Source: Bacillota bacterium
Lineage (GTDB): Bacteria > Bacillota > Ch66 > Ch109
Length of the DNA: 64,000 bases
Direction of reading: 5' to 3'
Assembly: GCA_050952625.1 (NCBI GenBank)
Contig: JBMNLH010000001.1
Location: forward strand, 96,001 to 160,000
The translations under genes were made by a program, and so were the position numbers. Positions within the stretch are counted from its first letter, which is position 1. Each line of letters starts with the position of its first letter. Below the pieces are notes generated by a model that saw only the letters and a list, made by a program, of their open reading frames with translations, was not told where the DNA came from and ran no database searches. Shown in pieces: positions 32,494-47,501 of the stretch.

Positions 32494-34206
32494 ATGATAA
32501 TGGAGAAAAAACCGTGGAAGCTAATTACCTTTATCGGGATGGGTTATTATCAGCCGACGAATTATAAGATTAAAGGAGTAGAATATCCTGACACCAAATA
32601 TTTTCCCTTAGCTGCGGCTAAATGGTTGATTGAGCAAAGGGGAGATCAAGGAAAAATTGTAGTACTGGTCACTAAAGAAGTTATTGAAGATACAAAAAAC
32701 CAGAATTTACAGGGATTTAAGGAAGCCTTATTACTTGACCCACAATTTAAACATCTAAATGTGCAGCAAGAAATATTTCCTTGGAAAGAAGAAAGCGAGC
32801 TCTGGGAAATATTTAAGATAATCGTTAATTCGGTAGAGAATGGCGAAACCGTATATTTTGATATTACTCATTCCTTTAGATTTATCCCGTCCATCGTTTT
32901 GTTGGCTTTGATTTATTTAAAAGAGGTTAAAAGGATAGACCTTCAGTCGGTGTTCTACGGAAACTTTGAGGCAACGAAATCAGGCTTTGACTATGCACCC
33001 GTATTTGATATTCTCCCTTTTGTCGATCTCGCGGAATGGCTGTTTGGGGCGCGAGTATTTAAAGAATTTGGGTTAGGCAGTATTTTAGGTGACAAAATTA
33101 AGACGGTGCAGGCTGAAATACGGAGAAAAAGCAAAGAAGGGCCGGAGAAGTTAATTAAGCTGGGGACCCGCTTGAATAATCTTTCAAGTGCTTTAGCTGT
33201 GGGTAATGCCATAGGTGTGGGTGAAAACGCCCTGAAATTGACTAATTTTATAAATCAAAATAAAGATAAAATAGAAACGGAAGTAAGGGAGTATGTCCCG
33301 CCATTGGTGCCGTTAATAGAGGGTATTGTGGATGAATATGCTCAATTTGGGCTTGAGGATATTCAGTTAAATATGAAGGAATTAGAGAGAGAAGAAAGTT
33401 TAATTCGCTGGTATCTAGAAAAAAAAGATATCGGAAAAGCCCTGCAACTGTTTAGGGAATTTATAGTAAATACTGTTTTATATATTAATGCTGGGTCGAC
33501 TCGTGAGTGGCTAAAACTGGATAATAGATTGCCCGTAGAACGGCAATTACATAATTTAAAGGTCGCTAATACAGAGGTTGGTCGCCTCTGGGATGAAATT
33601 GCATTCGAAAGAAATTCAATTGCCCATTGTGGTTTTAATAATCAAGACAAATTTAATCCGAATAAAGAGTATCGAAATTTACAGTTGGTTACCAGGCCTG
33701 ACCATAATCTTGAGGAATGGATTTCTAGAATTGCTTCAGAGGTACAAGCTTTAGCCTTCGATGAAGGATCGGTCCTGCTAACACCATTGGGGCTGTCGAA
33801 AGGGTTATTATTTACCTTATGGCAGAGATATCCTGATATTGAGCGGACCATAATTCTCACATCGGCAGAGACGGTCAACAGTATCGAAGAAGTGAAAAAG
33901 ATAACCGGATACTCAGGGGAGATCAAGATCTGCCTAGTTCAAGATCCATTTACTGCTTTTGACCAGATTGAAAATAAGTGGAAGGAAATAAAAGATTTTC
34001 TTAAAAGTAATATTATTGTTAATATCACTGGCGGTACCACAGCACTTCAATATTTGGTGGAAAAAATACAACAAAGGCTTATTAACCAGGATGTGAGAAT
34101 AACTACGGTTGCGGCTATTGATCGAAGGCCCGTGCAGGAACAAAAAGAAAACCCATGGGTAGCCGGACAGATAATTAAATTAAAGGAAGACCATCAGGAA
34201 GATTAG
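32494..34206 (+). CDS. csx1: Csx1-like CARF-HEPN ribonuclease with an additional C-terminal CARF-like domain
   Basis: LITFIG..Y..TNY, FDITHSFRFIP (DxTHG/S motif), HEPN RNSIAH, then TPLGLSKG...VNITGG. Confidence 0.88.
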   Translation: MIMEKKPWKLITFIGMGYYQPTNYKIKGVEYPDTKYFPLAAAKWLIEQRGDQGKIVVLVTKEVIEDTKNQNLQGFKEALLLDPQFKHLNVQQEIFPWKEESELWEIFKIIVNSVENGETVYFDITHSFRFIPSIVLLALIYLKEVKRIDLQSVFYGNFEATKSGFDYAPVFDILPFVDLAEWLFGARVFKEFGLGSILGDKIKTVQAEIRRKSKEGPEKLIKLGTRLNNLSSALAVGNAIGVGENALKLTNFINQNKDKIETEVREYVPPLVPLIEGIVDEYAQFGLEDIQLNMKELEREESLIRWYLEKKDIGKALQLFREFIVNTVLYINAGSTREWLKLDNRLPVERQLHNLKVANTEVGRLWDEIAFERNSIAHCGFNNQDKFNPNKEYRNLQLVTRPDHNLEEWISRIASEVQALAFDEGSVLLTPLGLSKGLLFTLWQRYPDIERTIILTSAETVNSIEEVKKITGYSGEIKICLVQDPFTAFDQIENKWKEIKDFLKSNIIVNITGGTTALQYLVEKIQQRLINQDVRITTVAAIDRRPVQEQKENPWVAGQIIKLKEDHQED

Positions 34207-34272
34207 GTGACCTGAAATTCTAAAAGTGATCAAAGCAGGCAAAATTTTTTTGTCTAGATTATGAGGTGGAAT

Positions 34273-35547
34273 GTGGCTAGAGTTCTCATTTCAGGCATAG
34301 GTACTGGCCAGCTTAATGGTCAGGATGATTATGGGCTTGAACACCGAAGAAAATACCGAACAGCAACTTATCTTATTGATCAGAAAAAATATGAAACAGA
34401 GTTTATAGCCAGTGCATTAATAGAACATTACCAAATTGAAAAGGTGTTTCTTGTTGGTACCGTAAAATCAATGTGGGAAAATGTATATGAGTATTTTGCT
34501 GGTGCTAACCTGGATGAAGAATATTATTTCCATTTGGTTGAAGCAATTGAAAAATCAAATTATTTAGATCAATGCTTTGACATGGACTATCTTGGCAACG
34601 TGAACGAAGCAATGAACTGTTTTCTTAAGTCGAGTGACTCACGTTGTTTTTTAATTAAGTACGGCTTGAATGAAGAGGAAATTATCTATAATTTCGGGAT
34701 ATTTCAGGATATCGCGGAGTTGTTGGAAAGTGGAGACGAGGTGTTTCTGGACATAACTCATTCTTTTCGGTCATTGGCTCTATTTCAATACACAATGGTC
34801 AATTACATAGACAATTTGTCACACAAAAACATTGAGGTTAAGGGCGTGTTTTACGGCATGCTCGAAACTGCTCGGGAGATGCAGGGCATTACACCGGTGG
34901 TTAATCTTAAAACAGTGTATGAATTAAGCAATTGGGTAAAAGCCATTCATGAGTTAAAGAGTTACGGAAATGGTTATATAGTATCGGATTTATTAAGAGA
35001 TTATGATAAACGACTAGCTAACAAGATCAAAATGTTTTCGGACCTGGTTAATTTAAACTACCTGGCTGGGGTAAAAAACCAAGTGGACAATCTGTCGAGA
35101 TTAAACTTTGAACACATAAATGGGCCGGGCAGTATGGTGGCAGAGTATCTAAATCGTTATGTTAACCGGTTCGCGTCAATCAGAAATGAGTGGGAGTTCC
35201 AGTTTGAAATGGCAAAGTGGTATTTTGAAAATAAACGGTATGCTACGGGTTATATTGCTTTGATAGAATCGATATTAACTCGAATTTGCGAATTGTTAGC
35301 TTTAGATCCTAAAATTAAAAACAATAGAGATGAAGCGAAAAATATTCTCTATAATAACCGATCAGGTGCTAATTTGAGAGAGGTCAGGTATAAGTTCGAT
35401 GCGATTAATAGAATCCGTAAGAATGTGGCGCATGTCCTTGATGATCGGGACGAAAGGAATTATTTGACGGATGTGCGGCAGTCAGCTTATTACATCCGGA
35501 GTTTAGAAGGATTATTAAAGCGTCTGTCGGCTGATGATTTAAGGTGA
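34273..35547 (+). CDS. csx1: Second Csx1-like CARF-HEPN ribonuclease (TM1812 type)
   Basis: VLISGIG, YRTATY, GTVKSMW, LDITHSFRSL, YGMLE, HEPN RKNVAH. Confidence 0.88.
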   Translation: MARVLISGIGTGQLNGQDDYGLEHRRKYRTATYLIDQKKYETEFIASALIEHYQIEKVFLVGTVKSMWENVYEYFAGANLDEEYYFHLVEAIEKSNYLDQCFDMDYLGNVNEAMNCFLKSSDSRCFLIKYGLNEEEIIYNFGIFQDIAELLESGDEVFLDITHSFRSLALFQYTMVNYIDNLSHKNIEVKGVFYGMLETAREMQGITPVVNLKTVYELSNWVKAIHELKSYGNGYIVSDLLRDYDKRLANKIKMFSDLVNLNYLAGVKNQVDNLSRLNFEHINGPGSMVAEYLNRYVNRFASIRNEWEFQFEMAKWYFENKRYATGYIALIESILTRICELLALDPKIKNNRDEAKNILYNNRSGANLREVRYKFDAINRIRKNVAHVLDDRDERNYLTDVRQSAYYIRSLEGLLKRLSADDLR

Positions 35548-35982: not shown

Positions 35983-36972
35983 ATGCCGGATCTTAACCAA
36001 TTAATAGAGGCATCGGCGATTCAGTGTAAAACATTTAATTGTACTGTGCTAACTCCGCTGTTCCTGCATGGTTGGCAGGAGACAGTGGTGACTGGCCACG
36101 GGAGACCAGTAAATAGGCCGGTCAGCGCAGAGTTCCGAATCCCCTCAATGAAAGGGGTATTGCGTTACTGGTGGCGGACCTTACAACCACTTAAACTTCA
36201 AGCTTTGCAGCAAAAGGAACAAGAATTGTTTGGCGGAACTAGCGGTGATAAAGGACAAAGATCCCCTTTATTGCTGAAAGTCAGCATATTGGATAGAGGT
36301 CCAAGCTCAGAAAATATGAACACATCATCCCTGTGTCCGCATAAAGGTGGCATGCCATCACTGGCCCTGCCTGCGGACCGAGAGTTTGCTTTTGAGCTTG
36401 CAGTGCATCAGCGCAATGCCGCGAGATTATCTGAATACGAAGCAATATGTCAATTCATGTTTCTCTTGGCTGGTTTCGGACAAAGGTCTCGTCGGGGAGC
36501 GGGGTCGCTTCAGGTTGAAGGGCTATGTTGGCAAAACATTAAGGAGTATCAAAACTCTTTGCGGGAAACTTTGCAATCCCTAAATTGCGCGAATGATTTT
36601 GAGTTTCCAAATGGTAATACGGGCGGATGTTTGCTACAACGCAAACGACGGGAGTCAACGGAGGCGAGGGGGGCTTTTCACCCGATTTTGCAGCGGGTCT
36701 GGGTTGGATCCGATTCTCGGACTGCAGAAGAGGCTAGACGCCAAATCAGTAATGCCGGCCATCTAGCTAATCCTAGTGGAAAAGCCCAGTATTTAGGCAA
36801 TGTAGGGGGCAAAGGGATTGCTCGTTTAGCTTCGCCTCTTTTGTGTACGGTTAGAAAAATCGGAGAAGCCTACTGCCCCATTGTGAGTGAAGTCAGCAGC
36901 CCGCATCTAGGGAAAAACGTATACATACAACGACGAAACGAGTTTTTAGAGGCTCTGGGGGTGAAGGTGTGA
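35983..36972 (+). CDS. cmr1: Cmr1
   Basis: LTPLFLHG, FRIPSMKGVLRYWWR, LFGG, GFGQRSRRGAGS, RLASPL. Confidence 0.93.
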   Translation: MPDLNQLIEASAIQCKTFNCTVLTPLFLHGWQETVVTGHGRPVNRPVSAEFRIPSMKGVLRYWWRTLQPLKLQALQQKEQELFGGTSGDKGQRSPLLLKVSILDRGPSSENMNTSSLCPHKGGMPSLALPADREFAFELAVHQRNAARLSEYEAICQFMFLLAGFGQRSRRGAGSLQVEGLCWQNIKEYQNSLRETLQSLNCANDFEFPNGNTGGCLLQRKRRESTEARGAFHPILQRVWVGSDSRTAEEARRQISNAGHLANPSGKAQYLGNVGGKGIARLASPLLCTVRKIGEAYCPIVSEVSSPHLGKNVYIQRRNEFLEALGVKV

Positions 36973-38714
36973 GTGAGGTCGGCAATTTGCTGGTTTTTAG
37001 CGTAGGCCCAGTTCAGAGTTTTATTGCCTCGGCCAGGAAGATTGAGGATTTATGGAGCGGGAGTTACATTCTTTCCCATCTAGCTGAACAAGCCATGAGC
37101 GTTATCTTGGAACAGGCGGAAGCTAAACAAGTTAAGGCAGAAATGATTTATCCTCCGATGAAATCATCAACCGGTCCGCAGCATCAGCAAGCTGGAAACC
37201 GGGTAGCTCATATTGAAGTAGCGTCACAGCCTAACCGGTTTATTTGTTGGTTGGAAGCAGACAGTCAAACGGTATCAGTAATAGCTCGACAGGCAGAAAA
37301 AAAGGTCCGGGACAGTCTGGTTGACCTGGGCGAATACGCCTTGCGCCGCGTTTTCCCTAAAGATGCTAATCGGGATTATATGTTGGACCTGCACCGGCAG
37401 CAGGTGGATAACCTGCTGGAAGTTTACTGGGCCACGGAGCCGTTTGCTCTGACTGATGACTATAATCAAGCTCGAAACCAGGTGGAAAAGCGGTTGGCGG
37501 CGGTAAAAAACGCCCGTCCCTATCATCCCTATCGGCAGCAGGGATTGGTGTGTACCCTCTGCGGGGAACAGCAGGCCTTAATTTCCCGATGTTTGCCTGA
37601 TCAAGAATGGATTACGTACGCTCTCATGAAAGAAACATTGGCCGGTACTTGGAATAAACGGCATGATCAGTTTAAAGCCCCGCTGGAGTTAGATGCGGAT
37701 GACCAGAAGGTGGGGCGGATAAAAGACAACGAGGGTTTGTGCGGCATTTGTCTGAGCAAACGGCTAGCTCGGGATTACTTTAAAGATAAGTACCAGGCCC
37801 CCAATGCCTTTGCGCCTTTCCCTTCGACCCAGGATATCACCGGTGGCAGCAAGTATTACGCCATTTTAATGATGGACGGGGACGACATGGGTAAGTGGGT
37901 TTCCGGGCAAAAGAAAAACCCGCCAGTAAAAGTAGATATGCAGTATCAGCAGGATTTGAGCAAAAAATTGGAGGAGTTTGCCCTCACCTCAGTTCCTAAA
38001 TTGGTGAATGAGTTTGAAGGTAAACTCATTTATGCCGGGGGAGACGATGTCTTGGCTTTTGTCCCGGTCCGACACGCCCTGAACTTAGCCCGTTCACTGC
38101 GCCTGGCTTTCAGCGATCCCCAAAAAGGGTTAGACCCGGAGGCCACTGCTTCGATCGGGGTGGTGGTGGTTCACGCCAAAGCTCCGCTGGCAATGGCCTT
38201 GGAGTATGCCCGGCAAATGGAAAGCAAGGCCAAAGCCTATCGGCACGCTAATGGTCGGGCCAAAGACGCACTGGGATTAGCGGTGATCACCCATAGCGGC
38301 GAGATTCGGGAAGCTATATTACCTTGGGCAATGGATGGCCAGCGATATACTGGGGAAAAAGCCCAATGTTCAATTGGTTATTTGCTGGCTTTGTTTCAGT
38401 TGGTAGAGACTGATCTCTCGGTCAGCTTCATTGAGCATTTTGCCCAGGCTTTTTTACCGCTGCTCGGGGCGGATTTGAAAGGCCAGCGCAAGTTTAAAGT
38501 CTTAGACGAACCAGAGTTAAACCAAAAACTGCTGTGTAGTGAGATGCACCGGGTATTGGAGCGGTCAAAAAAAGAAGACTCACGGCGGCAGGATTTGGCT
38601 AAGCAGGCGCAAATCATGATTCAACTCCATGAGCTAATGCCTTCTGGCCTGCAATTCATCCATCTGTTAGAAATGGCGCGGTTCTTTAAGCGTACCGGAG
38701 GTGATAAGTCATGA
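36969..38714 (+). CDS. cmr2: Type III-B Cas10/Cmr2 (HD-less, Palm cyclase intact)
   Basis: GPVQSFIASARK..DLWSGSY, CTLCG, YYAILMMDGDDMG, IYAGGDDVLA; no N-terminal HD domain. Confidence 0.95.
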   Translation: MSEVGNLLVFSVGPVQSFIASARKIEDLWSGSYILSHLAEQAMSVILEQAEAKQVKAEMIYPPMKSSTGPQHQQAGNRVAHIEVASQPNRFICWLEADSQTVSVIARQAEKKVRDSLVDLGEYALRRVFPKDANRDYMLDLHRQQVDNLLEVYWATEPFALTDDYNQARNQVEKRLAAVKNARPYHPYRQQGLVCTLCGEQQALISRCLPDQEWITYALMKETLAGTWNKRHDQFKAPLELDADDQKVGRIKDNEGLCGICLSKRLARDYFKDKYQAPNAFAPFPSTQDITGGSKYYAILMMDGDDMGKWVSGQKKNPPVKVDMQYQQDLSKKLEEFALTSVPKLVNEFEGKLIYAGGDDVLAFVPVRHALNLARSLRLAFSDPQKGLDPEATASIGVVVVHAKAPLAMALEYARQMESKAKAYRHANGRAKDALGLAVITHSGEIREAILPWAMDGQRYTGEKAQCSIGYLLALFQLVETDLSVSFIEHFAQAFLPLLGADLKGQRKFKVLDEPELNQKLLCSEMHRVLERSKKEDSRRQDLAKQAQIMIQLHELMPSGLQFIHLLEMARFFKRTGGDKS

Positions 38715-39850
38715 AACAGCTTTTTATGCAACCAGTAGATACCTTCTTTTTCCGTAATCAAAAGGATTTTACCCCCGGGGTGAATTCGATGGCTGCTTCA
38801 GTTTTTCCGCCCCGCCCGGGAACGGTCTACGGAGCTTTGCGCAGTGCTTATATCAACCAATACAGCACTTTCGAGCAGTTTCGTACCGGGTGTGAGGGCC
38901 AGGTTAAAGAGTGGATGGGAACCCCGGTCGAACCGGGTCGGTTTCGGCTGCGCGGGTGTTTTCTTCACGATCAACAGCAGCCGATCTTACCGTTGCCTCT
39001 GGATTACCAAGTTGTCGAAACTGAGCATACGGGCGAAGCAGCCGAAATAGCCTATCCGCTGAAACTGACCTTAGACGTTGTTCCCGCTTCTGATGGACGT
39101 CAGTACCGACTCTACGGGGTTCGGGATGAAAAAAGCGGCTCCAGCGCAGGAGCTTATCTCCCGTTGTCAGACTGGAAAAAAGCATTGCTTGAGCCGTCAA
39201 GCGTACATATTTATCGAAGCAGCCACTGGATGATCCAAGAGGACAAGCTCGGAATCGCCCGGGATTGGGCCACCCGAACCGCTAGAGAGGGCATGCTCTA
39301 TCAAATTAAAACAAACCGTTTTATTGAAGCGAAAGAACCGGCCCGAAGCCCGGGCTTGTTAGCGGTCTGTACGGATGCTCCGGATTTTTCCGAGATTTCC
39401 TTGGTCCGGCTGGGGGGACGGAATCGTCCCTGGGCACTTAAATCCATACCGGACGAGTTTGGGATGTTTAAAGCCAAAGAGGAACGGTTAATTGAAGAAC
39501 GGATTGCCAGCAGCCAAATTGCCCGTTTGATACTGTTGACCCCAGCCATTTGGCGGGAAGATTCGTCGTTCTATCAACAGCAAGCTGGAGTTTTTCAACT
39601 GCGGCCGGGCCTCTCCTTCCCTGTTTTGGCCGAAGCAATCGGCCGGCCAGTATTGGTCGGGGGATGGGACATTGTCCGGAATGCGCCGAAACCAAGGATT
39701 CAGGCGGTCCCAGCCGGCACGGTTCTCTATCTGCGAGTATCGAAAGAACAGGCCTCAGCTTTGGTCCAAGGCTTGAAAGAAACGATGGTTAGTGATGAGT
39801 TGGCTTACGAAGGTTATGGCTGGGCAGTTTGCGGACCAGTCAAATTATAA
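38711..39850 (+). CDS. cmr3: Cmr3
   Basis: PVDTFFFR, PPRPGTVYGALR, RLGG, GGWD, AVPAGTV, GYG. Confidence 0.95.
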   Translation: MKQLFMQPVDTFFFRNQKDFTPGVNSMAASVFPPRPGTVYGALRSAYINQYSTFEQFRTGCEGQVKEWMGTPVEPGRFRLRGCFLHDQQQPILPLPLDYQVVETEHTGEAAEIAYPLKLTLDVVPASDGRQYRLYGVRDEKSGSSAGAYLPLSDWKKALLEPSSVHIYRSSHWMIQEDKLGIARDWATRTAREGMLYQIKTNRFIEAKEPARSPGLLAVCTDAPDFSEISLVRLGGRNRPWALKSIPDEFGMFKAKEERLIEERIASSQIARLILLTPAIWREDSSFYQQQAGVFQLRPGLSFPVLAEAIGRPVLVGGWDIVRNAPKPRIQAVPAGTVLYLRVSKEQASALVQGLKETMVSDELAYEGYGWAVCGPVKL

Positions 39851-39862
39851 GGGGGTAGGAAT

Positions 39863-40765
39863 ATGTTTAACCTTAAGAAAATGCTATTTTTGCACGCTAT
39901 TACTTCAGTTCATGCCGGCAGCGGAAGTGAACTGGGTTTAGTGGATTTGCCGATCCAGCGGGAAAAACACACCGGTTATCCGAAAATTGAAAGCTCTTCC
40001 CTGAAAGGGGCGGTCAGAGCCACGGTTAGTGCGGTTGTCAACAGCGATGTTAAATCCCCTGAGGATAAAGAGATGATTGAGGTGGTCTTTGGTAAAGAGG
40101 GCGATGAGAAGAAGAACAATGCGCAGGCCGGAGCAATTTCCCTGTCGGATGCGCGGCTTCTGCTTTTCCCCGTGCGTTCGCTACGCGGCGTGTTTGCCTG
40201 GGTTACTTGTCCGCTGGTGCTTAAACGGTACAATCAAGAACTAAAACTATACTGCCCTGACCAACCGCTGTTGCCGATTCCAGAAACAAAAACCGCGGCC
40301 GGAGAGGCGATTATCGTTAATCCTCGAGAAACTCAGAAACAGGTGGTGCTTGAGGAATACACGTATGAAGTAAAGGTGGATGACGCCTGCCGGAAATTGG
40401 CAGAATACTTACAAGAAAAGGTTTTTCCTGGATTAGATAATGGAATTAGGGAACGGCTGTTAGTCCTGCCAGATGATGATTTTACGGATTTTGTGACCTT
40501 ATCGACCGAGGTTAATGCCCGCATTCGGATAGACCCCGAGACCGGTACCGTTAAAGATGGGGCCCTCTGGTATGAGGAGAATGTTCCCCCAGAGAGCGTT
40601 TTTTACAGCTTCTGTTTTATTGGCCAGGGCCGCTTAACCGGCCAGGAGAAAAAAGCAGAAGAAATCTGGCAGTACCTCAAGCGGGATGATATATTTCCAG
40701 AGGTCTTCCAACTGGGAGGCAACAGCACCCTGGGCAAAGGCATTTTGCGTCGAATCTGGCGTTAA
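39863..40765 (+). CDS. cmr4: Cmr4
   Basis: VHAGSG, VDLPIQRE (catalytic Asp), LLFPVRS, LWYEE, QLGGNSTLGKG. Confidence 0.96.
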   Translation: MFNLKKMLFLHAITSVHAGSGSELGLVDLPIQREKHTGYPKIESSSLKGAVRATVSAVVNSDVKSPEDKEMIEVVFGKEGDEKKNNAQAGAISLSDARLLLFPVRSLRGVFAWVTCPLVLKRYNQELKLYCPDQPLLPIPETKTAAGEAIIVNPRETQKQVVLEEYTYEVKVDDACRKLAEYLQEKVFPGLDNGIRERLLVLPDDDFTDFVTLSTEVNARIRIDPETGTVKDGALWYEENVPPESVFYSFCFIGQGRLTGQEKKAEEIWQYLKRDDIFPEVFQLGGNSTLGKGILRRIWR

Positions 40766-40789
40766 TTTACGGAATTAGGGGGGCGGACA

Positions 40790-41251
40790 ATGAGCAAGGA
40801 AAAAGCAAAGGCAAAAGCAAAAGAAAAAGCTGCCGCTACGCGGGTGGGCATTGAAAACGGCCGGGCTGCTTATGCCTTTCAAAAGATTAACGATTACGTG
40901 CAGGATAATATTAATAATGAAAAGGGGCTGAAGGAGTACCGTTCCTATCTGAAAAAACTTCCGGCCATGATCCAGGTAAATGGGTTAGGCCAAACCCTGG
41001 CCTTCTGTTTTGCCAAAGGAGGACAATATCAAGTTATTTACGGTCAGCTTGAGGAGTGGATTCGGCAGCAGCAATCGACCTTGATCAAGCAGTATGATAA
41101 TAAACCAGCCAAGAAGTTTGTGGAACTAGTCGTGATGATGGATAGCCGCGATTACCGAATCATAACCAATGAGGTTATTGCGGTGCTTGATTGGATGCGG
41201 CGTTTCGCTGACGGGCTGATTCGCCCGCTGGTTAACGAGCAGGAGGGTTAA
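40790..41251 (+). CDS. cmr5: Cmr5
   Basis: RAAYA, LPAMIQVNGLGQTLAF, WMRRFA. Confidence 0.95.
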   Translation: MSKEKAKAKAKEKAAATRVGIENGRAAYAFQKINDYVQDNINNEKGLKEYRSYLKKLPAMIQVNGLGQTLAFCFAKGGQYQVIYGQLEEWIRQQQSTLIKQYDNKPAKKFVELVVMMDSRDYRIITNEVIAVLDWMRRFADGLIRPLVNEQEG

Positions 41252-41266
41252 GGGGGTGGAGGATTC

Positions 41267-42493
41267 GTGTACTATCATCCCAAAGATACGCAAGACATCT
41301 TTGAAAAGAAAATTAGTAATTTGAACGAGAGCGTAGATAATTTATGGTACCGAGTGCATTATTTTCAACAGAACTCGTTGCATGATAAAAGTCAAAATAG
41401 ATTGGTTAAACTGCCGAAGAATTTGCGTTTAAATCGGCCCACCCAGTCGTTTCTTAACCAGCGATTGCAGCAACGGGCCCAGTTGTTAAGCCATCTGCAG
41501 GCCAGTTGTGAGTTGGCCGGGCTGAAGGGATTTTTACAAGGAAGACTAATCCACGGACTGGGCGGGGCGCATGTCCGGGAAACCTCGCTGACGCTGCATC
41601 CCCTCTACGGTCTGCCTTATATCCCGGGTTCGAGTCTGAAGGGAGCGGTCCGCAACTGGGTTTTACAGGCTTTTTTTCAGGGTGACGAAGATTCCTTGAA
41701 GAAGGAAACTCATTTAGATCAAACGAAGGCTGAAATACGGACAATCTTTTTTGACTTGTTTGGAAGCGAGGAACAAGCCGGATTGGTTGAGTTTTTTGAT
41801 GCCTTTGTTGAGTCTGATTTTTCTCTGCAACCGGATATTTTGACTGTTCATTTTCCTAAGTATTACAGTGGCGAGAAATCGCCGACCGATGATCAGAATC
41901 CCAATCCGGTCGATTTCTATACCATAAATTGTTCTTATCTACAGTTTTTCTTGGCGGTTAAGAAGGGGCGATCAACCCGGTCCAGCTTAAATAGTGCTCA
42001 ATTGATGGAATTAGCCGTAGCTTGGACGCAAAAAGCTTTGAGCGAGTTGGGGATTGGCTCCAAGACTTCAGCGGGCTATGGCTATTTTTCCAAGTTTGAG
42101 CAAATTAAGGTTAATAACCTTCGCTCAATTACTGCTGTCAATCAGTCTAGTCGAAAAAACACTGACAACAAGTCAGCGGATAGTTCAGTAAAAGGCCCGG
42201 CCCCGGCCAAGGACAAAAATAGTCCGGTTGGTCAAGTGGAAAGTCAACCAATGGATCTAGGACCCGGGCTAATATTGGTCCGGCTAATTAACCAGTTGGC
42301 TGAGAAAAGTGAGCAGGACCGCAACCGCAGCAAGGGAGAAGTCTACCAACAGGTACTGGCTTTGGCTGAGCAAGGGGAACTGGAACCAGCCCGATCGCTT
42401 AAAGCGTATTGGGAAAGGTCCGGTGATTGGAAAAAACCGAATAAAAAGCAGCAGCAGAAGATAGATGCGATAAGAAAGATATTAGGAGAATAA
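41267..42493 (+). CDS. cmr6: Cmr6 with C-terminal extension
   Basis: RLIHGLG, YGLPYIPGSSLKG, DILTVHF..YY, GIGSKTSAGYG. Confidence 0.95.
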   Translation: MYYHPKDTQDIFEKKISNLNESVDNLWYRVHYFQQNSLHDKSQNRLVKLPKNLRLNRPTQSFLNQRLQQRAQLLSHLQASCELAGLKGFLQGRLIHGLGGAHVRETSLTLHPLYGLPYIPGSSLKGAVRNWVLQAFFQGDEDSLKKETHLDQTKAEIRTIFFDLFGSEEQAGLVEFFDAFVESDFSLQPDILTVHFPKYYSGEKSPTDDQNPNPVDFYTINCSYLQFFLAVKKGRSTRSSLNSAQLMELAVAWTQKALSELGIGSKTSAGYGYFSKFEQIKVNNLRSITAVNQSSRKNTDNKSADSSVKGPAPAKDKNSPVGQVESQPMDLGPGLILVRLINQLAEKSEQDRNRSKGEVYQQVLALAEQGELEPARSLKAYWERSGDWKKPNKKQQQKIDAIRKILGE

Positions 42494-43464
42494 TGATAAC
42501 AACAAAGCCTTATTCTATTACCTATTCCCGTTTTCGCTTCACCCTTCGGGCAGAAGAAGATGCTCGCTTACCGGCTTATTTGGGCTCAACCTTGAGGGGA
42601 GCTATGGGCCGGGCTTTCAGGCGAGGGAGTTGTCTAAGTTTGCGCAGCCACTGTTCAGACTGTATGTTCTCCTCACGCTGCGCCTACGCCTATATTTTTG
42701 AAACCTCACAGGCTTCAACGATAAACAAAGGAGCCGGGGTTGAGCATTTTTATATTCCTCACCCCTTTGTTATCGAGCCGCCCCTGGACGGAAAGACCAT
42801 TTTCAAAGCAGGAGAGGAACTGACATTCGATCTGCTGCTGATCGGCAGCGGATTACACTTTTTCCCTTTTTTCATTGCCGCCTTTGCCCAGGCAGCGGCG
42901 GAGGGTCTGGGGGCAGGACGTCATCGTTTCCGCTTGGAAAACGTGGCCCAATGGTTGGATGATGAGTTGGTTTTACTTTGGAATGGGGGTAATAGGCTGC
43001 TTGGAAATCCAGTCGCTCAGGTCTTAACCAATGATCTTGAGGCTGGAATTGACTGTAGGGAAATTACCCTGCACCTGCAAACCCCGCTGCGGATAAAAGA
43101 ACGCGGTCACCTGGTGAATGAAATAAGCTTTCCTTTGTTAATCCGCAGTATTTTTCGCCGCCTGGATTTATTGGGTCGCGTTCATGGCGATGGTCCGCTA
43201 ATTCTGCCGTATACCGATTATCTTCAACAGGCGGCGGCAGTTAGTGCGGTGCCAGAAGCTAATTCATTATACTGGACAGAATGGCGGCGTTATTCCAATC
43301 GCCAAAAGGTTCACATGAATATGGGAGGATACTGTGGCAGTATCCGGTATCAGGGTGATCTCGGCCCTTTTCTTCCTTACCTTAAAATGGCAGCCGTCCT
43401 GCACCTGGGCAAAGGAACAGTGTATGGCCTGGGCAAAATCGCCATTGAGGTTACCGAGAGGTGA
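42493..43464 (+). CDS. cas6: Second Cas6 (intact)
   Basis: GSTLRGAMG, C..C....C, PHPFV, RYSNRQ, HLGKGTVYGLG. Confidence 0.92.
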   Translation: MITTKPYSITYSRFRFTLRAEEDARLPAYLGSTLRGAMGRAFRRGSCLSLRSHCSDCMFSSRCAYAYIFETSQASTINKGAGVEHFYIPHPFVIEPPLDGKTIFKAGEELTFDLLLIGSGLHFFPFFIAAFAQAAAEGLGAGRHRFRLENVAQWLDDELVLLWNGGNRLLGNPVAQVLTNDLEAGIDCREITLHLQTPLRIKERGHLVNEISFPLLIRSIFRRLDLLGRVHGDGPLILPYTDYLQQAAAVSAVPEANSLYWTEWRRYSNRQKVHMNMGGYCGSIRYQGDLGPFLPYLKMAAVLHLGKGTVYGLGKIAIEVTER

Positions 43465-43645
43465 TTTCAGCCAGATGAGGATAGTCTGCGAATGTATATT
43501 CTGTGTAAGTCGTGCCGAAAAGATATTACCACAGCCGGCAAAGAGAAACTTTATGAACTGGATGAACGATACTATATTGTGTGAAATTGTTAATTCATAA
43601 CCTCTGGTTTGATCCAAAACAGATGGTGGTTATAAAAAGTGAGAA

Positions 43646-43981
43646 ATGGCTAATTTGAGGGGGATGTCTTGTCACGCGTCCATCACTTCTGTCCACGGCG
43701 GCCAACCGGGCAAAAATTTTGGGGTTCGGATTAAAGTGCTTATCCCAGAAGGATTAGTCAAGGAACCAAGTCGGTCCCCAACCCACCACCTTGGAAATTG
43801 TGCTGATGAATCAATTACCCCTTCCCATACCACTTTCCTAAATAAAAGCGATGGCAGCCAGAAAAACAGTTTTCCAGCGGCCAATAATATAAGGGGTTAT
43901 GGGCAAGAACATTTGGATGATCTTGACTATGATGATAACGATGATGACGTGTTATTTTCTGATTACATTAAGAATATCTAG
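43646..43981 (+). CDS. Hypothetical protein with acidic C-terminus (doubtful)
   Basis: ORF is co-oriented between cas6 and the membrane genes; no clear RBS or motif. Confidence 0.35.
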   Translation: MANLRGMSCHASITSVHGGQPGKNFGVRIKVLIPEGLVKEPSRSPTHHLGNCADESITPSHTTFLNKSDGSQKNSFPAANNIRGYGQEHLDDLDYDDNDDDVLFSDYIKNI

Positions 43982-44068
43982 CAAGGACCCAAGCAGGCCC
44001 TAAATGCTATAAAAACTAATTAAAAGCCAATTAAAATAGATTATCTTTGAATTAAGGAGATCGTTTAT

Positions 44069-44758
44069 ATGGTAGATCAAAACCTTTCACGGGTAGTTCA
44101 ACAGCATTATCTTGCCCAGCGGTTGGCTCGACAAAGTACCGAGAAGATAGCACGTGTGCTTGATGATTTAATGGATAATTCCACCAGCGGTCAAAGTATG
44201 CTTAGCTGGGATTTTTTAGCAAAAGCCAAACAGCAGGTAGAGGACTGTTTACATAACGGCCAACAGGCAGTAAAAATAGCAGTGCTGGTTCCAGTGGGTT
44301 TGTTTGGATTAACCCAGGGGTTTGATATGCCAGACCTGGACATATCTTTGCTCGGGATCGGAAACCACCGATTTTTTCTTTGTCATAGTGCTATCGGCTT
44401 GGCGGTTTTACGCTACTTCTATCGACGGTGGGTTGAATCGGAGGATGGGCGATTTTCTTCTCGCCTGGGACACAAGGTGGCCGGGGTAGCACTTGGCAGT
44501 TGTGCCTTGGGTGTAGGTTTGCATTTAGCGATTGATGTTTTTCAGCCGAAATCAGTCGTCTTCCCGTTTTTTGGCTCTTTAATCAATGGAACGTTAGTTG
44601 ACGATAATATTTGGCTGTTAGGCAATTCTTTGTGGGCCTTTAAAATAAGTCATGATGTTTTTGCCTTGTCCCTGGCGGATGAGTTAACTCAGGCCAGGGA
44701 ATGGGTGCAGAATCATTTTGAAGGGTGGAATGTCCGTGCAGTTTTTAATCGGGATTGA
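44069..44758 (+). CDS. Membrane-embedded putative metal-dependent hydrolase (YdjM/DUF457-like)
   Basis: PDLD...HRFFLCHS...HLAID motif series within hydrophobic helices; RBS AAGGAG. Confidence 0.65.
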   Translation: MVDQNLSRVVQQHYLAQRLARQSTEKIARVLDDLMDNSTSGQSMLSWDFLAKAKQQVEDCLHNGQQAVKIAVLVPVGLFGLTQGFDMPDLDISLLGIGNHRFFLCHSAIGLAVLRYFYRRWVESEDGRFSSRLGHKVAGVALGSCALGVGLHLAIDVFQPKSVVFPFFGSLINGTLVDDNIWLLGNSLWAFKISHDVFALSLADELTQAREWVQNHFEGWNVRAVFNRD

Positions 44759-45689
44759 CCTGATGTCCCGCGAAGAAAAGATTGCCCTACTGGCCCAGTT
44801 AAAAGCAATTACTGGGTTTAATCTAATCAAGCAAGGGTCCAGCGAGTTCGTGTTGAAAGCAAAAAACGGACTGTTTTGGGCCGGAAAAAAATTGGCCGAT
44901 CTGACCGGTCAAGTTGAAGCGGTTGAAAAACTGGAAAAATGGAATAGCCAAAGCAATTGGAACCCAAATTTGCTCCAGAAGGAGATGGCCTGTCAGCAGA
45001 AAGAACTGGAATTATTAAGTGATCGGGGAGTCGAGGTCCGCCTCCGGCAAGAATTAGCCCGGTTGGCCGGAGTTGCTCCGGAGGCTGATCTAGAAACGAT
45101 TGCCCAACATTTGGTGAAGCGTCTGGCTGAGCTGTATCAGTTGGACGAATGGCACTTTCAAAATGATACGGCCCTGGAGGAAAAAGTCTATTCTGCCTGC
45201 CTGGAAGAACAAATAAATATTTTGAAACAGAAACTCAATTCGCTGGATCGGGAAGAAGAAATTCAGATGCAAGAAGCCCTTGAACAACAAATCAACCAAT
45301 TGAGCCGGGCGGAACAGGAGGCGATAAAGCAGGCCATGGGATTGGATGAGCTTTCCGCGGCGTCAATGATGACTCTGTTGAAAACCACTTCGGGAGTGGC
45401 CTTAGCTCAAGTCATTTTATCCGGGACCGGGTTTGGCGTCTATCTTTTTCTAACGACCATGATCAAAGCCCTATCGTTAATGTTGGGAGTTACTTTTTCT
45501 TTTGGCACTTATACGGCAGCCACGACCGCGATGGCCTTTTTATTGTCTTTTCCTTTTCTTCTCCTGGTGGTTGCCTTATCCGGCGGCTTTATCTGGCATA
45601 AAACGTCAGTTAAAATAGATGAGCAATTGACGAAAATCGTCTTTCTGGCGGGTCGGGCAAAAGTGGCTTATATTGAGACGGCAGGTTAA
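44730..45689 (+). CDS. Coiled-coil protein with C-terminal TM helices (YaaW/UPF0174-like architecture)
   Basis: Charged helical N-terminus and 2-3 hydrophobic segments (GFGVYLFLTT..., AFLLSFPFLLLVVAL); overlaps the previous gene. Confidence 0.7.
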   Translation: MSVQFLIGIDLMSREEKIALLAQLKAITGFNLIKQGSSEFVLKAKNGLFWAGKKLADLTGQVEAVEKLEKWNSQSNWNPNLLQKEMACQQKELELLSDRGVEVRLRQELARLAGVAPEADLETIAQHLVKRLAELYQLDEWHFQNDTALEEKVYSACLEEQINILKQKLNSLDREEEIQMQEALEQQINQLSRAEQEAIKQAMGLDELSAASMMTLLKTTSGVALAQVILSGTGFGVYLFLTTMIKALSLMLGVTFSFGTYTAATTAMAFLLSFPFLLLVVALSGGFIWHKTSVKIDEQLTKIVFLAGRAKVAYIETAG

Positions 45690-45880
45690 TCATATCTGGC
45701 GAATTAATATGTTTGAAGGTATTTAGGGATTAGGCTATAATTTTATTGTAAATTATTTAATGCTCTAAAATTGAGACTGCAAGTATATCAAGAACATTTA
45801 TATTATAGGATATTATACATATTATATATAGAGTAATAGTTGAGGTGTTTTGTATAAGTGTGACTTGCATTTAAATCTAC

Positions 45881-46090
45881 CGCTAACCTGTTTGGACTGT
45901 CAAAAACGCGGGAGGTTAGCGATATTGAGAAATAATGAGTATTTGGAAGAAAAAAGGGGGTATAAGCAGTTATTTTTGTTTTGAATAAAATGGTAATAGG
46001 TGTTTTTAAGTTTGATTTATGATGGTTTTTTGGAGGTTAGCGGAACGCTACCTCGCAGCCCAGAATTATCAAGGCCTCTGGACAGCCGCT
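45881..46090 (+). promoter_or_regulatory. CRISPR leader 2
   Basis: Same three motifs at -210, -178 and -56 as in leader 1. Confidence 0.85.
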
Positions 46091-47501
46091 GTGAGAATCA
46101 TTGACCCGATTAGAGGGGATTGCGACCTGATGTACCAATCGACAGTCGTTCATGCGCATGTGAGAATCATTGACCCGATTAGAGGGGATTGCGACCTTAA
46201 TACACAGGTGATTCAGTCCGCAATGTCATGTGAGAATCATTGACCCGATTAGAGGGGATTGCGACCATTTATGAGCGCCTTCAGGATCACTAATCTTCCT
46301 CAATGTGTGAGAATCATTGACCCGATTAGAGGGGATTGCGACCTTTAATAATCCTTATTTACTCACTATTTACTGTTTCAGTGAGAATCATTGACCCGAT
46401 TAGAGGGGATTGCGACTTTCCTGACAGCAAGTACTCCCAATACATTATCAGTCGTGAGAATCATTGACCCGATTAGAGGGGATTGCGACTAATCCGCCTG
46501 TAAGGCCCTAAGTTATTCCCACGTGAGAATCATTGACCCGATTAGAGGGGATTGCGACTCTTCGATTCTTGTCCCTGCTTAATCCTTGTTGTACAGTGAG
46601 AATCATTGACCCGATTAGAGGGGATTGCGACATCTTATCCACCGCTTCGCATCGAGCATTCTACTGCGTGAGAATCATTGACCCGATTAGAGGGGATTGC
46701 GACACATTCTGTCACTGAGCAACCGAGTCCATTAATTACGTGAGAATCATTGACCCGATTAGAGGGGATTGCGACCTTTACTTTGATCTGACTCGCTCCG
46801 GCACTATCTTCGTGAGAATCATTGACCCGATTAGAGGGGATTGCGACCTGTCATCCAGCTCCGGCAATCGTACACTGAGTGAGAATCATTGACCCGATTA
46901 GAGGGGATTGCGACAAAACACGTCTTCCTCGTGATCTCAATCAGTGAGAATCATTGACCCGATTAGAGGGGATTGCGACTTAAGACATCTGTCTATAGAT
47001 ATACATTGCCTTATGTGAGAATCATTGACCCGATTAGAGGGGATTGCGACTTTCAGCTTTTGTTCAAGGTTTTGGATTGTATCTTTTAAGTGAGAATCAT
47101 TGACCCGATTAGAGGGGATTGCGACCTTGGATAATAAAGGAGCCGTAATCCGTAACTACTGTAAGTGAGAATCATTGACCCGATTAGAGGGGATTGCGAC
47201 TTCCAGGCCCCGAGAGGGGCTATTTTTTGCGCGCTTTGTGAGAATCATTGACCCGATTAGAGGGGATTGCGACTTCAGTAGTTTGTTTCCACGCTCCCTC
47301 ATACCATTTTTGTAAGAATTATTGACCCGATCAGAGGGGATTGCGACGTCATTTGTTCGGTCTACCCCTTTCTATTTCATCCTCTAAGTGAGAATGATTG
47401 ACCCGACCAGAGGGGATTGCGACTATCCTGTGCCGCCGATGATAGCAGCTTCTACAGGCTTCTCCGTGAGAATTATTGACCCGACCAGAGGGGATTGCGA
47501 C
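46091..47501 (+). CRISPR. CRISPR array 2: 20 repeats, 19 spacers of 29-42 bp
   Basis: Repeats 1-17 are GTGAGAATCATTGACCCGATTAGAGGGGATTGCGAC; the last three are divergent variants. Confidence 0.98.

Follow-up and report, generated by a model that had tools for sequence, protein, structure and literature searches.

A conserved pair of predicted membrane proteins in a type III-B CRISPR-Cas locus of Bacillota, probably an accessory of bacterial immunity

Within the type III-B CRISPR-Cas locus of a Bacillota bacterium, two overlapping genes for predicted membrane proteins, hereafter A and B, are placed between cas6 and the leader of a second CRISPR array. The question raised by this arrangement is whether the pair takes part in the type III response, as an effector or as an enzyme removing its signal, or else resides there as a module of its own. 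We have approached it with the 64,000-nt stretch of DNA that contains the locus (hereafter the window) and with the relatives of both genes.

The gene pair and its locus

Gene A (44069-44758, plus strand) encodes a protein of 229 residues from an ATG start, with an AAGGAG ribosome-binding site (44054-44059, plus strand) that is read from the sequence nine nucleotides 5' of this codon. Gene B follows on the same strand (44736-45689); its longest frame begins with TTG at 44718 and has 323 residues, and the GTG at 44736, on which the database gene call and the alignment of homologues agree, defines a protein of 317 residues and an overlap of 23 nt with A. With the 317-residue gene call, 13 relatives of B were found. 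The upstream neighbour of A is the cas6 gene of the III-B module (42493-43464, plus strand; PF10040, E 3.5e-16), preceded on the same strand by the type III-B genes cmr1-cmr6 (35983-42493; Pfam and NCBIfam), among which Cmr2 (36969-38714) shows a GGDD motif at residue 357 and, by motif check, no HD domain. Directly 3' of B lies a leader-like copy (45866-46090, plus strand) and then CRISPR array 2 on the plus strand, which starts at 46091 and has repeat matches up to 47501; both are recognised by the direct-repeat families D1-D4, D6 and D12. The leader of array 1 (29332-29434) is 90% identical to the copy at 46024-46126, with further copies at 45866-45893 and 45932-45965. Reading frames and leader copy thus agree with the earlier note on this DNA, which had described A and B as co-oriented, overlapping genes between cas6 and leader 2.

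Further upstream on the plus strand are two genes for Csx1-type CARF-HEPN effectors (32494-34206 and 34261-35547), both of which match the PADLOC models CARF2-CARF_HEPN(_CARF) (E 1e-106 and 1e-126) as well as TIGR02221; the locus already having two such effectors speaks against reading the pair as a further effector. The window also contains, on the plus strand, a WYL/WCX regulator pair (18863-20335 and 20363-21511; Pfam and PADLOC WYL), the csm genes of a type III-A system (22103-28005), whose Cas10 has HD and GGDD motifs, and a second cas6 (28098-28937; Pfam), after which comes CRISPR array 1 (29399-31226), recognised by its repeats.

The spacer between cas6 and A (43465-44068, plus strand) contains an orphan frame (43646-43981) of 111 residues with an acidic tail, which matches no family in Pfam, NCBIfam or PADLOC. 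A promoter and terminator scan found neither a sigma-70-like promoter nor a terminator-like site on the plus strand of this spacer, and no sigma-54-like GG-N10-GC element scored above threshold upstream of A in the window, in a scan that also covered the regions upstream of A in five related loci (L002, L010, L012, L033 and L088). This lack of promoter-like sites in the window counts against the effector role proposed below. Metatranscriptome contigs with at least 99% identity and a depth of 2-3, from four runs of three studies, cover 43912-44132, 44174-44513, 44492-44708 and 44886-45102; because DNA can be present in such libraries, these short contigs provide a weak hint of A-B transcription only. 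None of them extends over cas6 or the end of B, to which we attach no meaning.

Features and pairing of the two proteins

Protein A contains three motifs, P88-D89-L90-D91, H100-R101-x4-H106-S107 and H152-L-A-I-D156. The first and the last correspond to the PDLD and HLxxD signatures described in the earlier note, while the HRxxxHS given there needs correction, since four residues, not three, separate Arg from the second His. A search found 171 homologues of A, and in an alignment of 35 sequences (40-58% identity to the query) all residues of the three motifs are invariant, far above chance; the invariant positions are D89, D91, H100, R101, H106, S107, H152, D156, P160, K161, D178 and D179. The protein has a variable N-terminal helical domain (residues 1-66) followed by four hydrophobic helices; its C-terminal block, QPK..FPFFGS...GT..DD..W, is distinct and strongly conserved.

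The motifs recall the YdjM/DUF457 family (PF04307), which the A of the window matches with 12.8 bits (E 0.085), below the gathering cut-off of 29 bits. Its relatives strengthen this connection, as 29 of the 35 aligned sequences match PF04307 at E<=1 (best E 1.1e-6) and one of the relatives (P0060) has a precomputed match to the same family. Moreover, comparison of the A alignment with 23 canonical YdjM frames of the same phylum by hhalign gave an E of 9.1e-5 and a probability of 59% over 75 columns (residues 77-161), with PDxD, HR..HS and H..D in register, and the Atlas look-alikes of A, whether found by features or by structure, are YdjM/DUF5942 clusters. Protein A is, on the grounds of its sequence, a divergent and distant member of the YdjM/DUF457 superfamily and a predicted membrane metal-dependent hydrolase, so that its earlier description as YdjM-like stands in the sense of distant superfamily membership. 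It shares with the family the ordered PDxD, HR..HS and H..D block on a multi-helix hydrophobic core, but differs in having its own N-terminal helical domain and C-terminal block, in being paired with B and in its setting, which is a defence locus and not an SOS operon.

What is known of canonical YdjM gives a first indication of possible function. The relevant passages of one study (PMC8557891) report HHsearch relationships of YdjM with alpha-toxin phospholipase C, HET-C and S1-P1 nuclease, and mention RHS toxins that carry a YdjM module C-terminally; those of another (PMC11442139) describe YdjM as induced via LexA in Escherichia coli and Staphylococcus aureus, which would make it a stress-induced membrane hydrolase. 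In both sources (PMC11442139; PMC8557891), as far as these passages go, the hydrolase or phospholipase role is itself predicted, not demonstrated. For the zinc-dependent phospholipase C family (PF00882) we found an E of 0.21 with the A of the window and of 0.0012 with a relative (P0182). The AlphaFold2 model of A (pLDDT 68.8) returned no Foldseek match against the PDB at E<=0.001 and only generic helical bundles in the wide VIA-align search (best Z 8.5), with no phospholipase C-like fold among them; profile searches against PDB sequences gave nothing relevant.

The membrane character of both proteins is deduced from hydropathy. In A, the four segments of the membrane core have a mean Kyte-Doolittle hydropathy of 1.0-1.7 across the 35 sequences and are modelled as helices by AlphaFold2. 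The loop 119-136 has on average 4.5 Lys and Arg residues, against 1.4-1.7 in the two loops bearing the invariant Asp and His residues; according to the positive-inside rule, this cluster of Asp and His is probably located at the outer face of the membrane.

In protein B, an N-terminal motif is conserved and three hydrophobic segments lie in the C-terminal part (residues 221-286); the AlphaFold2 model of B is entirely helical (pLDDT 74.7), including the N-terminal 215 residues. The C-terminal part alone matches the PADLOC model LeoBC (E 8.8e-5, model positions 323-492 of 601); B thus shares the helical, membrane-anchoring part of LeoBC and bacterial dynamin-like proteins but does not have their GTPase domain, for neither Dynamin_N nor MMR_HSR1 was matched. 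An Atlas cluster of 619-residue Bacillota proteins aligns with B over its full length (TM 0.68, normalised by query). Foldseek found no match for B, the wide VIA-align search reached a best Z of 7.2 with helical hairpins only, and profile searches against PDB sequences produced nothing meaningful. B is therefore a helical protein of no known family, predicted to be anchored in the membrane and translationally coupled to A.

The pairing of the two genes is strongly conserved. A B-like gene adjoins A in 57 of 69 non-redundant loci, and of the remaining 12, eight lie at contig edges or are fragments, one is cut upstream (L123) and three truly have no B (L102, L113 and L114). In all 41 loci measured, B starts between -20 and +96 nt relative to the end of the A alignment, and the pair is spread over at least six phyla, as judged from record titles. 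From the gene overlap and this conserved pairing we infer that A and B bind each other physically.

Neither protein appears to have a domain for sensing nucleotides. No CARF, SAVED or CorA match was found in A or B with Pfam, NCBIfam and PADLOC, in line with the earlier remark that the pair was not recognised as any of CorA, Cam1 and Csx23. Fused forms of A were absent among the proteins of 402-2000 residues searched, which is weak evidence. An exhaustive profile search gave 210 cluster representatives, and of the 150 best of these none exceeded 402 residues except a weakly matching repeat protein of 637 residues; the 19 longest relatives showed no sensor domain, only sub-threshold YdjM matches in 10 of the 19. 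The N-terminal 215 residues of B could nevertheless hide a sensor of a novel kind.

An enzyme that degrades the signal constitutively would need no sensor domain, and A might accordingly be a membrane-bound phosphodiesterase of cyclic oligoadenylates (cOA), a ring nuclease of the P1-nuclease type that resets the type III signal, with B as its anchor or regulator. That profile comparison (in the passages of PMC8557891 mentioned above) ties the YdjM superfamily not only to phospholipase C but also to S1-P1 nucleases is consistent with such an activity. So is the frequent position of A-B, which is most often found beside CARF-HEPN RNases that need removal of the signal. A membrane-associated DHH-DHHA1 ring nuclease constitutes a precedent for degradation of cOA at the membrane. 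However, the invariant Asp and His residues, in their Lys- and Arg-poor loops, would face away from the cytoplasm in which cOA is found; a Cas10 or CARF gene to make or read the signal is missing from about half of the informative loci described below and from three of the ten A-containing genomes; and neither A nor B matches any known ring-nuclease family (Crn1-3, Csx3, DHH-type) in Pfam, NCBIfam or PADLOC. We regard a role of A in signal degradation as highly improbable.

Genomic neighbourhoods and co-occurrence with Cas10

To be informative, a locus had to have at least 6 kb of flank, as is the case for 32 loci; the survey of neighbours is uneven, metagenome loci having been scanned with PADLOC only. 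Type III cas, CARF or adaptation (cas1/cas4) genes are present in the flanks of 15 of these loci. Examples of nesting are A-B next to csm6 and cas10 (L012), directly after csm6 (L001), directly before cas10-csm3-csx10 (L088) or in the order WYL, A, csx1, cmr (L036, L050 and L123). The associated systems include III-A, III-B and III-D, and in a quick tree of A the type III contexts fall on at least 10 scattered branches, while one clade of 11 rows has none and so weighs against a link with type III. WYL genes occur in six of the 32 loci and adjoin A-B in seven loci overall, which gives indirect support to the suggestion that the pair is part of a WYL regulon. In two further loci (L116 and L124) a gene for an RtcR-type CARF-AAA+-HTH protein is followed by a GG-N10-GC element, a DUF4258 gene and A-B. 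Type III, CARF and WYL surroundings of the pair are thus met with in many lineages, in support of the earlier interpretation. Its proposed tie to an HD-less Cmr2 does not hold, given the III-A and III-D loci and the lack of any type III gene in about half of the informative ones.

In a phylum sample of 401 genomes, in which Cas10 was scored by PF22335, seven of the 10 genomes that contain A have Cas10, as opposed to 86 of the 391 without A (odds ratio 8.3, Fisher p 0.002), an enrichment of the kind that the earlier note had proposed to look for. The three genomes with A that have no Cas10 (G007, G280 and G307, the last being 84% complete) count against a link with type III. Type III systems are, besides, common in the phylum (93 of 401 genomes) and defence genes cluster in islands, so that proximity alone is no proof of joint function.

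This clustering underlies another explanation, by which A-B would be a self-contained membrane module of defence islands, acting in abortive infection or stress, that lies near type III systems through clustering only and neither receives nor modulates their signal. The flanks of 17 of the 32 informative loci contain no type III, CARF or cas gene, which favours independence and weighs against a type III link, and the neighbours are varied, including Wadjet (L005/L092), a BrxC/D-like gene (L023), McrB-like and helicase genes (L035), PsyrTA/Shosta-like genes (L131 and L135), PDC-M03B/HIRAN (L020, L082 and L093), GajB-like helicases, DrmD and a ThsA-like SIR2 gene. The genomes with A but no Cas10 and the lack of a sensor domain in both proteins fit equally well. 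Mere clustering is harder to reconcile with the nesting of A-B inside type III operons, between cas6 and the array leader in the window, between WYL and csx1 in the three loci of shared gene order and directly before cas10 in another. It also does not readily account for two close relatives in which A-B lies beside type III accessories despite differing neighbour genes; the A gene of the sister species (L001) has 97.6% DNA identity to that of the window from 62 nt inside the gene onward, and is preceded by other type III accessories. In addition, the share of loci with such genes within about 10 kb (15 of 32) greatly exceeds the rough 1% that we would estimate, rather than compute, for any gene picked at random from a genome with Cas10, and Cas10 is enriched in genomes with A. 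On balance, a module independent of type III signalling seems somewhat unlikely.

A further line of evidence comes from dynamin-like GTPase pairs, which adjoin A-B in seven loci (L010, L026, L029, L036, L050, L081 and L099). Together with the LeoBC match of the C-terminal part of B and the Atlas cluster aligning with all of B, they suggest that A-B could serve membrane maintenance or repair, such as lipid turnover or remodelling, with bacterial dynamin-like proteins, protecting the envelope during infection or stress instead of killing the cell. Canonical YdjM is, in fact, a common chromosomal gene (24 of 61 genomes of the phylum sample and seven of 14 control genomes), and six of the 32 informative loci have no defence-type neighbour and housekeeping-like surroundings. 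Unlike canonical YdjM, A has a sparse and scattered distribution (10 of 401 genomes, nine of 278 genera), a pattern of accessory, horizontally moving genes and not of maintenance genes. Dynamins, moreover, are found in only four of the 32 informative loci, and such pairs are themselves classed as a defence system (the LeoA and LeoBC models of PADLOC), so that the maintenance reading overlaps with a role in defence. Predominantly housekeeping contexts, which would have spoken against the earlier interpretation, are confined to those six loci; the other 26 have a defence-type neighbour, a number to be taken as an upper bound because this category includes candidate PADLOC families and weak matches. 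We deem a maintenance function decidedly unlikely.

Comparison with known systems and possible function

Among the described membrane proteins close to A is Cam3 (Hoikkala et al. 2024). The pertinent section of that work (PMC11229360) links it to type III-B systems and describes a small helical soluble domain of low conservation at the N-terminus, which precedes a bundle of membrane helices. Cam3 is regarded there as an accessory and not as an effector that binds nucleotides; it has six transmembrane helices and is always encoded immediately downstream of Cami1 (CARF-RelE). A resembles Cam3, as described there, in its N-terminal helical domain, helical membrane part, link to type III-B and accessory character, but has four hydrophobic helices instead of six and is immediately downstream of a CARF7/Cami1-like gene in none of the 69 loci, CARF7 genes being nearby in three (L001, L010 and L034). 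These differences are a matter of description only, and A could conceivably be identical to Cam3.

Other type III-locus membrane proteins, Cam1, Csx23 and Cap1, are thought to stop infection at the membrane, according to the passages on them in two sources (PMC11229360; 10.1101/2025.11.13.688252). Each of them is a single protein that forms pores and itself contains the domain that binds cA4 (CARF, CARF-like or, in Csx23, the soluble domain), whereas A-B consists of two genes, has no such domain and presents a predicted catalytic metal site in place of a pore. CorA with NrN or SAM-lyase is outlined in the first of these sources (PMC11229360) as a SAM-AMP-activated membrane effector of type III-B working with accessory enzymes. 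It is, like A-B, a III-B-associated membrane protein, but A and B have no CorA family match, only a weak generic helical overlap in fold searches. The analogy with CapV, the patatin-like phospholipase of CBASS for which the relevant text (PMC12480259) reports that lipid hydrolysis disrupts the membrane after a nucleotide signal, is functional only, for CapV is a soluble serine hydrolase of patatin fold that is directly activated by the cyclic nucleotide.

Literature searches retrieved no paper naming the A-B pair, and none combining CRISPR with 'DUF457' as a whole word or with 'membrane-bound metal-dependent hydrolase'; one supplementary file of Shah et al. (2018) contains no DUF457, YdjM, PF04307 or COG1988. 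An apparent lead on DUF457 and type III was rejected, since the Cap1 preprint in question concerns DUF4579. The pair may overlap with a family of Shmakov et al. (2018). With Cam3 compared by description only, the claim that the pair is undescribed agrees with these searches.

The repeated occurrence of this conserved cassette within type III CRISPR loci, and in defence islands of other kinds, makes it probable that A-B is an accessory of bacterial immunity which acts on the membrane and has not been described before. As to its mode of action, we tentatively favour a membrane effector module which is switched on indirectly and accompanies defence loci with nucleotide signalling, type III CRISPR-Cas being the commonest of them; we consider this reading possible rather than probable. 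A-B would then be a conserved two-protein module of the inner membrane, in which A, a four-helix metal-dependent hydrolase of the YdjM superfamily, would expose its Asp/His cluster outward, and B would be a cytoplasmic helical protein, anchored by its three C-terminal hydrophobic helices and translationally coupled to A. Having no nucleotide sensor of its own, this accessory effector might be switched on indirectly in the type III response, either by transcription induced via neighbouring WYL or CARF-AAA+ regulators or via the cytoplasmic domain of B. Active A may hydrolyse a membrane phospholipid or a lipid-linked substrate in the manner of phospholipase C, and the resulting damage or remodelling of the membrane would arrest the infected cell.

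A bolder form of this effector reading, which we consider unlikely, would see in A-B a third kind of type III output, namely a sensor-less two-protein membrane enzyme with its catalytic centre outside, switched on by WYL or CARF-AAA+ factors that read cOA or the RNA damage caused by Csx1/Csm6. Type III immunity would in this case end in an enzymatic attack on envelope lipids and not in a nucleotide-gated pore or nuclease. Other defence systems, for instance the dynamin-like pairs, would make use of this cassette too, as a common executioner at the membrane.

Accessories that act on the membrane are becoming more and more prominent in the biology of type III CRISPR systems. To our knowledge, those that have been characterised (CorA, Cam1, Csx23 and Cap1) are all channel-like and directly bind the second messenger. 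A-B is distinct from them as a conserved cassette of enzyme plus partner, sensor-less and recurring beside CARF-HEPN RNases and WYL or CARF-AAA+ regulators, a pattern that suggests another wiring, transcriptional or relayed by a partner, and another biochemistry, hydrolysis at the membrane. The residues D89, D91, H100, H106, H152, D156 and D178/179 of A make this proposition testable. Should A-B turn out to be an independent module of defence islands, it would still be a new two-gene candidate system; if the proposed effector role is true, it would provide the first defined biological setting for the large and uncharacterised YdjM/DUF457 superfamily.

The pair in a composite type III locus

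Genes A and B overlap on the forward strand of the window. Gene A (44069-44758, 229 amino acids) starts with an ATG that has AAGGAG nine nt upstream, and gene B (44736-45689, 317 amino acids) with a GTG lying 23 nt inside A, a start based on the public gene call of 317 amino acids and on alignment with relatives (the longest frame begins at TTG 44718). Both ORFs, read from the sequence, are present as the earlier note had claimed, and its placement of the pair between cas6 and leader 2 is correct, since the order here is cas6, a 111-aa ORF, A-B, a leader copy and array 2. The composite locus opens with a WYL/WCX pair (18863-21511), followed by the csm genes of subtype III-A (22103-28005), whose Cas10 has both HD and GGDD, their cas6 (28098-28937) and array 1 (29399-31226). 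Behind an HNH-like ORF come two Csx1 CARF-HEPN genes (32494-35547), cmr1-6 (35983-42493; Cmr2 with GGDD and no HD domain), the second cas6 (42493-43464), the orphan 111-aa ORF and the A-B pair, then a second version of the array-1 leader (45866-46090) and array 2 (46091 to about 47501). Besides A-B, the locus encodes two Cas10 proteins competent as cyclases and a pair of CARF-HEPN effectors.

With a cas6 and a WYL/WCX-HTH regulator pair of its own, the III-A csm set (18863-31226) makes up a second type III system that is complete. Its CRISPR repeat is common to the III-B module; in array 1 the first seven repeats deviate at two positions from the others, and the repeats of array 2 deviate at one. 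As the array-1 leader (29174-29434) is present again ahead of array 2 (45866-46126; 90% identical over 103 nt, with two shorter blocks in addition), array 2 and its leader look like a duplication set right behind gene B. The ORF between array 1 and csx1 (31388-32284, 298 amino acids) gives a weak C-terminal match to PF01844 (E 1e-4), an IscB-like HNH match (E 7e-4) and no PADLOC match at E<=1e-6. The orphan ORF between cas6 and A (43646-43981) has a very acidic C-terminal tail, matches no family, is missing from the sister-species locus L001 and may not be a gene. On the minus strand, a DUF763 gene (17483-18584) lies in two adjacent ORFs covering profile positions 1-106 and 117-319, and is probably frameshifted or interrupted.

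Neither a sigma-54-like element nor a sigma-70-like promoter or terminator was found between cas6 and A in the window, so that A-B may be transcribed by read-through from the cmr-cas6 operon. Short metatranscriptome contigs (identity >=99%, depth 2-3) that partly cover the two genes and the spacer 5' of A give a weak hint of expression.

Conservation and nature of the two proteins

We gathered 37 loci with A homologues from species-representative genomes, two via further genomes and 60 from metagenomes; their 99 A hits fell into 67 clusters at 95% identity or more, which, together with the window and L012 (kept separate from L011, as one MAG carries the two copies in differing contexts), gave 69 loci, for the most part MAGs and short contigs. 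HMMs of A and B detected a B-like gene beside A in 57 of the 69. Among the other 12, eight are fragments or break off at the contig end right behind A, and L123 has lost to a cut the side on which its relatives have B, leaving true absence only in L102 (= L022), L113 and L114. Where B lies downstream, its start falls between -20 and +96 nt relative to where the A alignment ends in 41/41 loci measured; it is upstream of A in one subfamily (L036, L049, L050, L118), and hhalign identifies the 296-aa neighbour of A in each of L128, L130 and L131 as homologous to B (probability 99.7-99.8%). A-B is a conserved cassette, whose hosts, going by record titles, include Bacillota (Syntrophomonadaceae, Peptococcaceae, Limnochordia, Thermoanaerobacteraceae), Ignavibacteriota, Bacteroidota, Thermotogota, Acidobacteriota and Armatimonadota.

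A word-indexed search (888 candidates of 125-401 aa) returned 171 A homologues at E<=0.001, all unnamed or 'hypothetical', and an exhaustive profile search delineated a small family, with 210, 125 and 46 cluster representatives at E<=0.001, E<=1e-10 and E<=1e-30, respectively. An alignment of 35 sequences with 40-58% identity to the query has 26 invariant columns, including P88, D89, D91, H100, R101, H106, S107, H152, D156, P160, K161, D178 and D179; these cover all three motifs listed in the earlier note, the middle one having four intervening residues, not three. The YdjM family PF04307 scores 12.8 bits with the window protein, below its cut-off of 29, and the Pfam model of Zn-dependent phospholipase C matches it weakly (E 0.21); PF04307 is matched at E<=1 by 29/35 relatives (best 1.1e-6). 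Compared by hhalign with 23 canonical YdjM ORFs (from 25 same-phylum loci, two without a suitable ORF), A aligns over 75 columns (E 9.1e-5, probability 59%) with all three motifs in register, and its nearest named Atlas clusters by features and predicted structure are YdjM/DUF5942 'membrane-bound metal-dependent hydrolase'. Sequence comparison therefore places A in a divergent branch of the YdjM superfamily, outside the curated Pfam family; the YdjM-like label first given to it holds for the former and not for the latter.

Hydropathy indicates four hydrophobic helices in A across the alignment. The loop 119-136 is rich in K/R (mean 4.5), whereas the two that contain the invariant Asp/His residues are acidic and have few K/R (1.7 and 1.4); read with the positive-inside rule, this distribution suggests an N-in, C-in topology with a putative metal site on the outer face. 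An AlphaFold2 model of A, of moderate confidence (pLDDT 68.8), gave no informative fold match.

At least 13 relatives of B, besides the window's own gene call, were found at 34-52% identity among 8000 candidates scored. Their conserved parts, in a 22-sequence alignment, are an N-terminal motif and, at the C-terminus, a highly conserved hydrophobic region rich in glycine and aromatic residues, the middle being helical and variable; hydropathy places three segments within residues 221-286. The AlphaFold2 model is all helical (pLDDT 74.7), with least confidence in the membrane region. B has no Pfam or NCBIfam family at E<=0.01, no match in fold or PDB searches and only unnamed Atlas clusters; B matches the PADLOC LeoBC (dynamin-like) model over the C-terminal part of the model only (E 8.8e-5).

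No CARF, SAVED or other nucleotide-binding family was matched in A or B with Pfam, NCBIfam or PADLOC. A search limited to 402-2000 aa found no A relatives, and the longest among the best 150 of 210 in the exhaustive search have 402 aa, save for a weakly matching repeat protein of 637 aa. The 19 longest yield nothing beyond YdjM matches below threshold, in 10/19, except that one carries a GTPase fragment, probably a fused gene call.

Type III and other defence contexts

Neighbours were classed by our own assignment, on a scan that was uneven between locus sets: Pfam for 258 ORFs >=80 aa within about 7 kb in the first 37 loci (L027 omitted as a duplicate of L025) and for L049, L050, L054 and the rest of the window; PADLOC for a further 37 + 55 selected ORFs (including Pfam-negative ORFs, L049/L050/L054 ORFs and some window ORFs); and PADLOC only for 117 ORFs >=110 aa from new metagenome loci and a few from L049 and L050, leaving out L114 and any sequence already represented identically in earlier loci. 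Type III cas, CARF or cas1/cas4 genes occur in 17/69 loci and in 15 of the 32 with flanks >=6 kb, against a background of type III genes within 10 kb of about 1% or less, which is our estimate and not a computed control. Their arrangements vary: A-B directly before cas10-csm3-csx10 (L088); A-B, csm6-like CARF-HEPN, cas10-csm2-4 (L012); cmr2-6, csx1, csx15, A (L022/L102); A-B, CARF7, csx1, cas1, cas2 (L010); CARF7, csm6, A (L001); A-B beside CARF7-MBL and Card1 (L034); and (B), WYL-WCX, A, CARF-HEPN-CARF, cmr (L036, L050, L123). This last variant (L036:3413-9832, L050:6072-12278, L123:133-6024) places the gene of a large WYL-WCX protein (600-932 aa) between the B-like and the A-like gene; the A-like product differs at its N-terminus, and the CARF-HEPN-CARF protein is a Csx1.

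L001 (contig of G005:C198) matches the window at 97.6% DNA identity from 62 nt inside A onward, yet the genes upstream of A are different type III accessories, so the cassette has kept its type III address through the exchange of its neighbours. A quick maximum-likelihood tree built from 66 sequences of A shows type III contexts on at least ten scattered branches, and one 11-row clade has none.

Within 401 genomes sampled evenly across the phylum, A is present in 10 (9/278 genera) and Cas10 (PF22335) in 93. Cas10 occurs in 7/10 genomes with A vs 86/391 without (odds ratio 8.3, Fisher p 0.002, related genomes not being independent); p becomes 0.006 without the same-genus genome G005, and 0.03 if G340, whose Cas10 match is the weakest (41.7 bits, above cut-off), is additionally scored as negative. 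WYL genes occur in 6/32 of the well-flanked loci. Three A-positive genomes (G007, G280 and G307, the last of 84% completeness) have no Cas10; together with the putative outward-facing site of A, this speaks against A being a membrane ring nuclease, which we consider highly improbable.

Some defence-type neighbour is seen in 26/32 loci, an upper bound because candidate PADLOC families and weak matches are counted in, and none in six (L009, L015, L019, L024, L027, L032). That A-B is an independent defence-island module seems rather unlikely. Dynamin-like pairs are found in 4/32; a role of A-B as membrane maintenance or repair partner of dynamin-like proteins appears still less likely. In the whole set, dynamin-like GTPase gene pairs (Dynamin_N; PADLOC LeoA/LeoBC) adjoin A-B in L010 (also with a ZorA-like/OmpA pair), L026, L029, L036, L050, L081 and L099. 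Three unrelated loci (L028:3618-4670, L034:95-1381, L135:3604-4992) have an IetA/TRIP13-like AAA+ ATPase gene immediately upstream of A and in divergent orientation, and an E2-like ubiquitin-conjugating ORF (UQ_con; L049:13684-14430, genome G099) lies just downstream of the A-like gene, behind two WCX-domain regulators within a CRISPR-cas neighbourhood.

WYL/WCX regulators are adjacent in seven loci (L036, L049, L050, L098, L118, L123, L130), and a 320-aa CARF protein gene is directly upstream of A in L002. Loci L116 and L124 share a conserved order of a gene for an RtcR-type CARF-AAA+-HTH activator, a GG-N10-GC element (sigma-54 type), a DUF4258 small gene and A-B, which suggests CARF-dependent transcriptional control of the cassette there; the operon-like arrangement spans L116:4699-8678 and L124:454-4362.

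Relation to known effectors and possible role

CorA, Cam1, Csx23 and Cap1 are rejected as the identity of A-B, which has neither a sensor domain nor a family match, in agreement with the first reading of the pair as none of CorA, Cam1 and Csx23. The closest described entity may be Cam3, compared by description only: a membrane protein of III-B systems, seen as accessory, whose N-terminal helical domain is poorly conserved (PMC11229360). That article reports six TM helices and a position always directly after Cami1, a description that fits 0/69 loci with A. We found no description linking YdjM, DUF457 or the hydrolase name with CRISPR; the papers listed for type III CRISPR with phospholipase concern unrelated systems only, the text and one supplement of Shah et al. 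2018 do not mention the family of A, and the Shmakov et al. 2018 preprint mentions an uncharacterised membrane family in one figure. Given this literature and the lack of a match to the four known effectors, we rate the pair as a probably new type III-linked membrane accessory that differs from Cam3 as described.

The idea of a lipid hydrolase is based on the superfamily membership of A, on profile comparisons that tie YdjM to alpha-toxin phospholipase C, HET-C and S1-P1 nuclease, and on the occurrence of YdjM modules in RHS toxins (the last two from PMC8557891, as excerpted); that of induction by stress is based on the LexA control of canonical YdjM (PMC11442139, as excerpted). Our preferred, still tentative, reading makes A-B an accessory module of nucleotide-signalling defence with a membrane effector role. 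In it, A would act at the outer face by hydrolysing a lipid of the membrane or a lipid-linked substrate, B would act from the cytoplasm as its scaffold or gate, and activation would be indirect, by transcription or via a partner.
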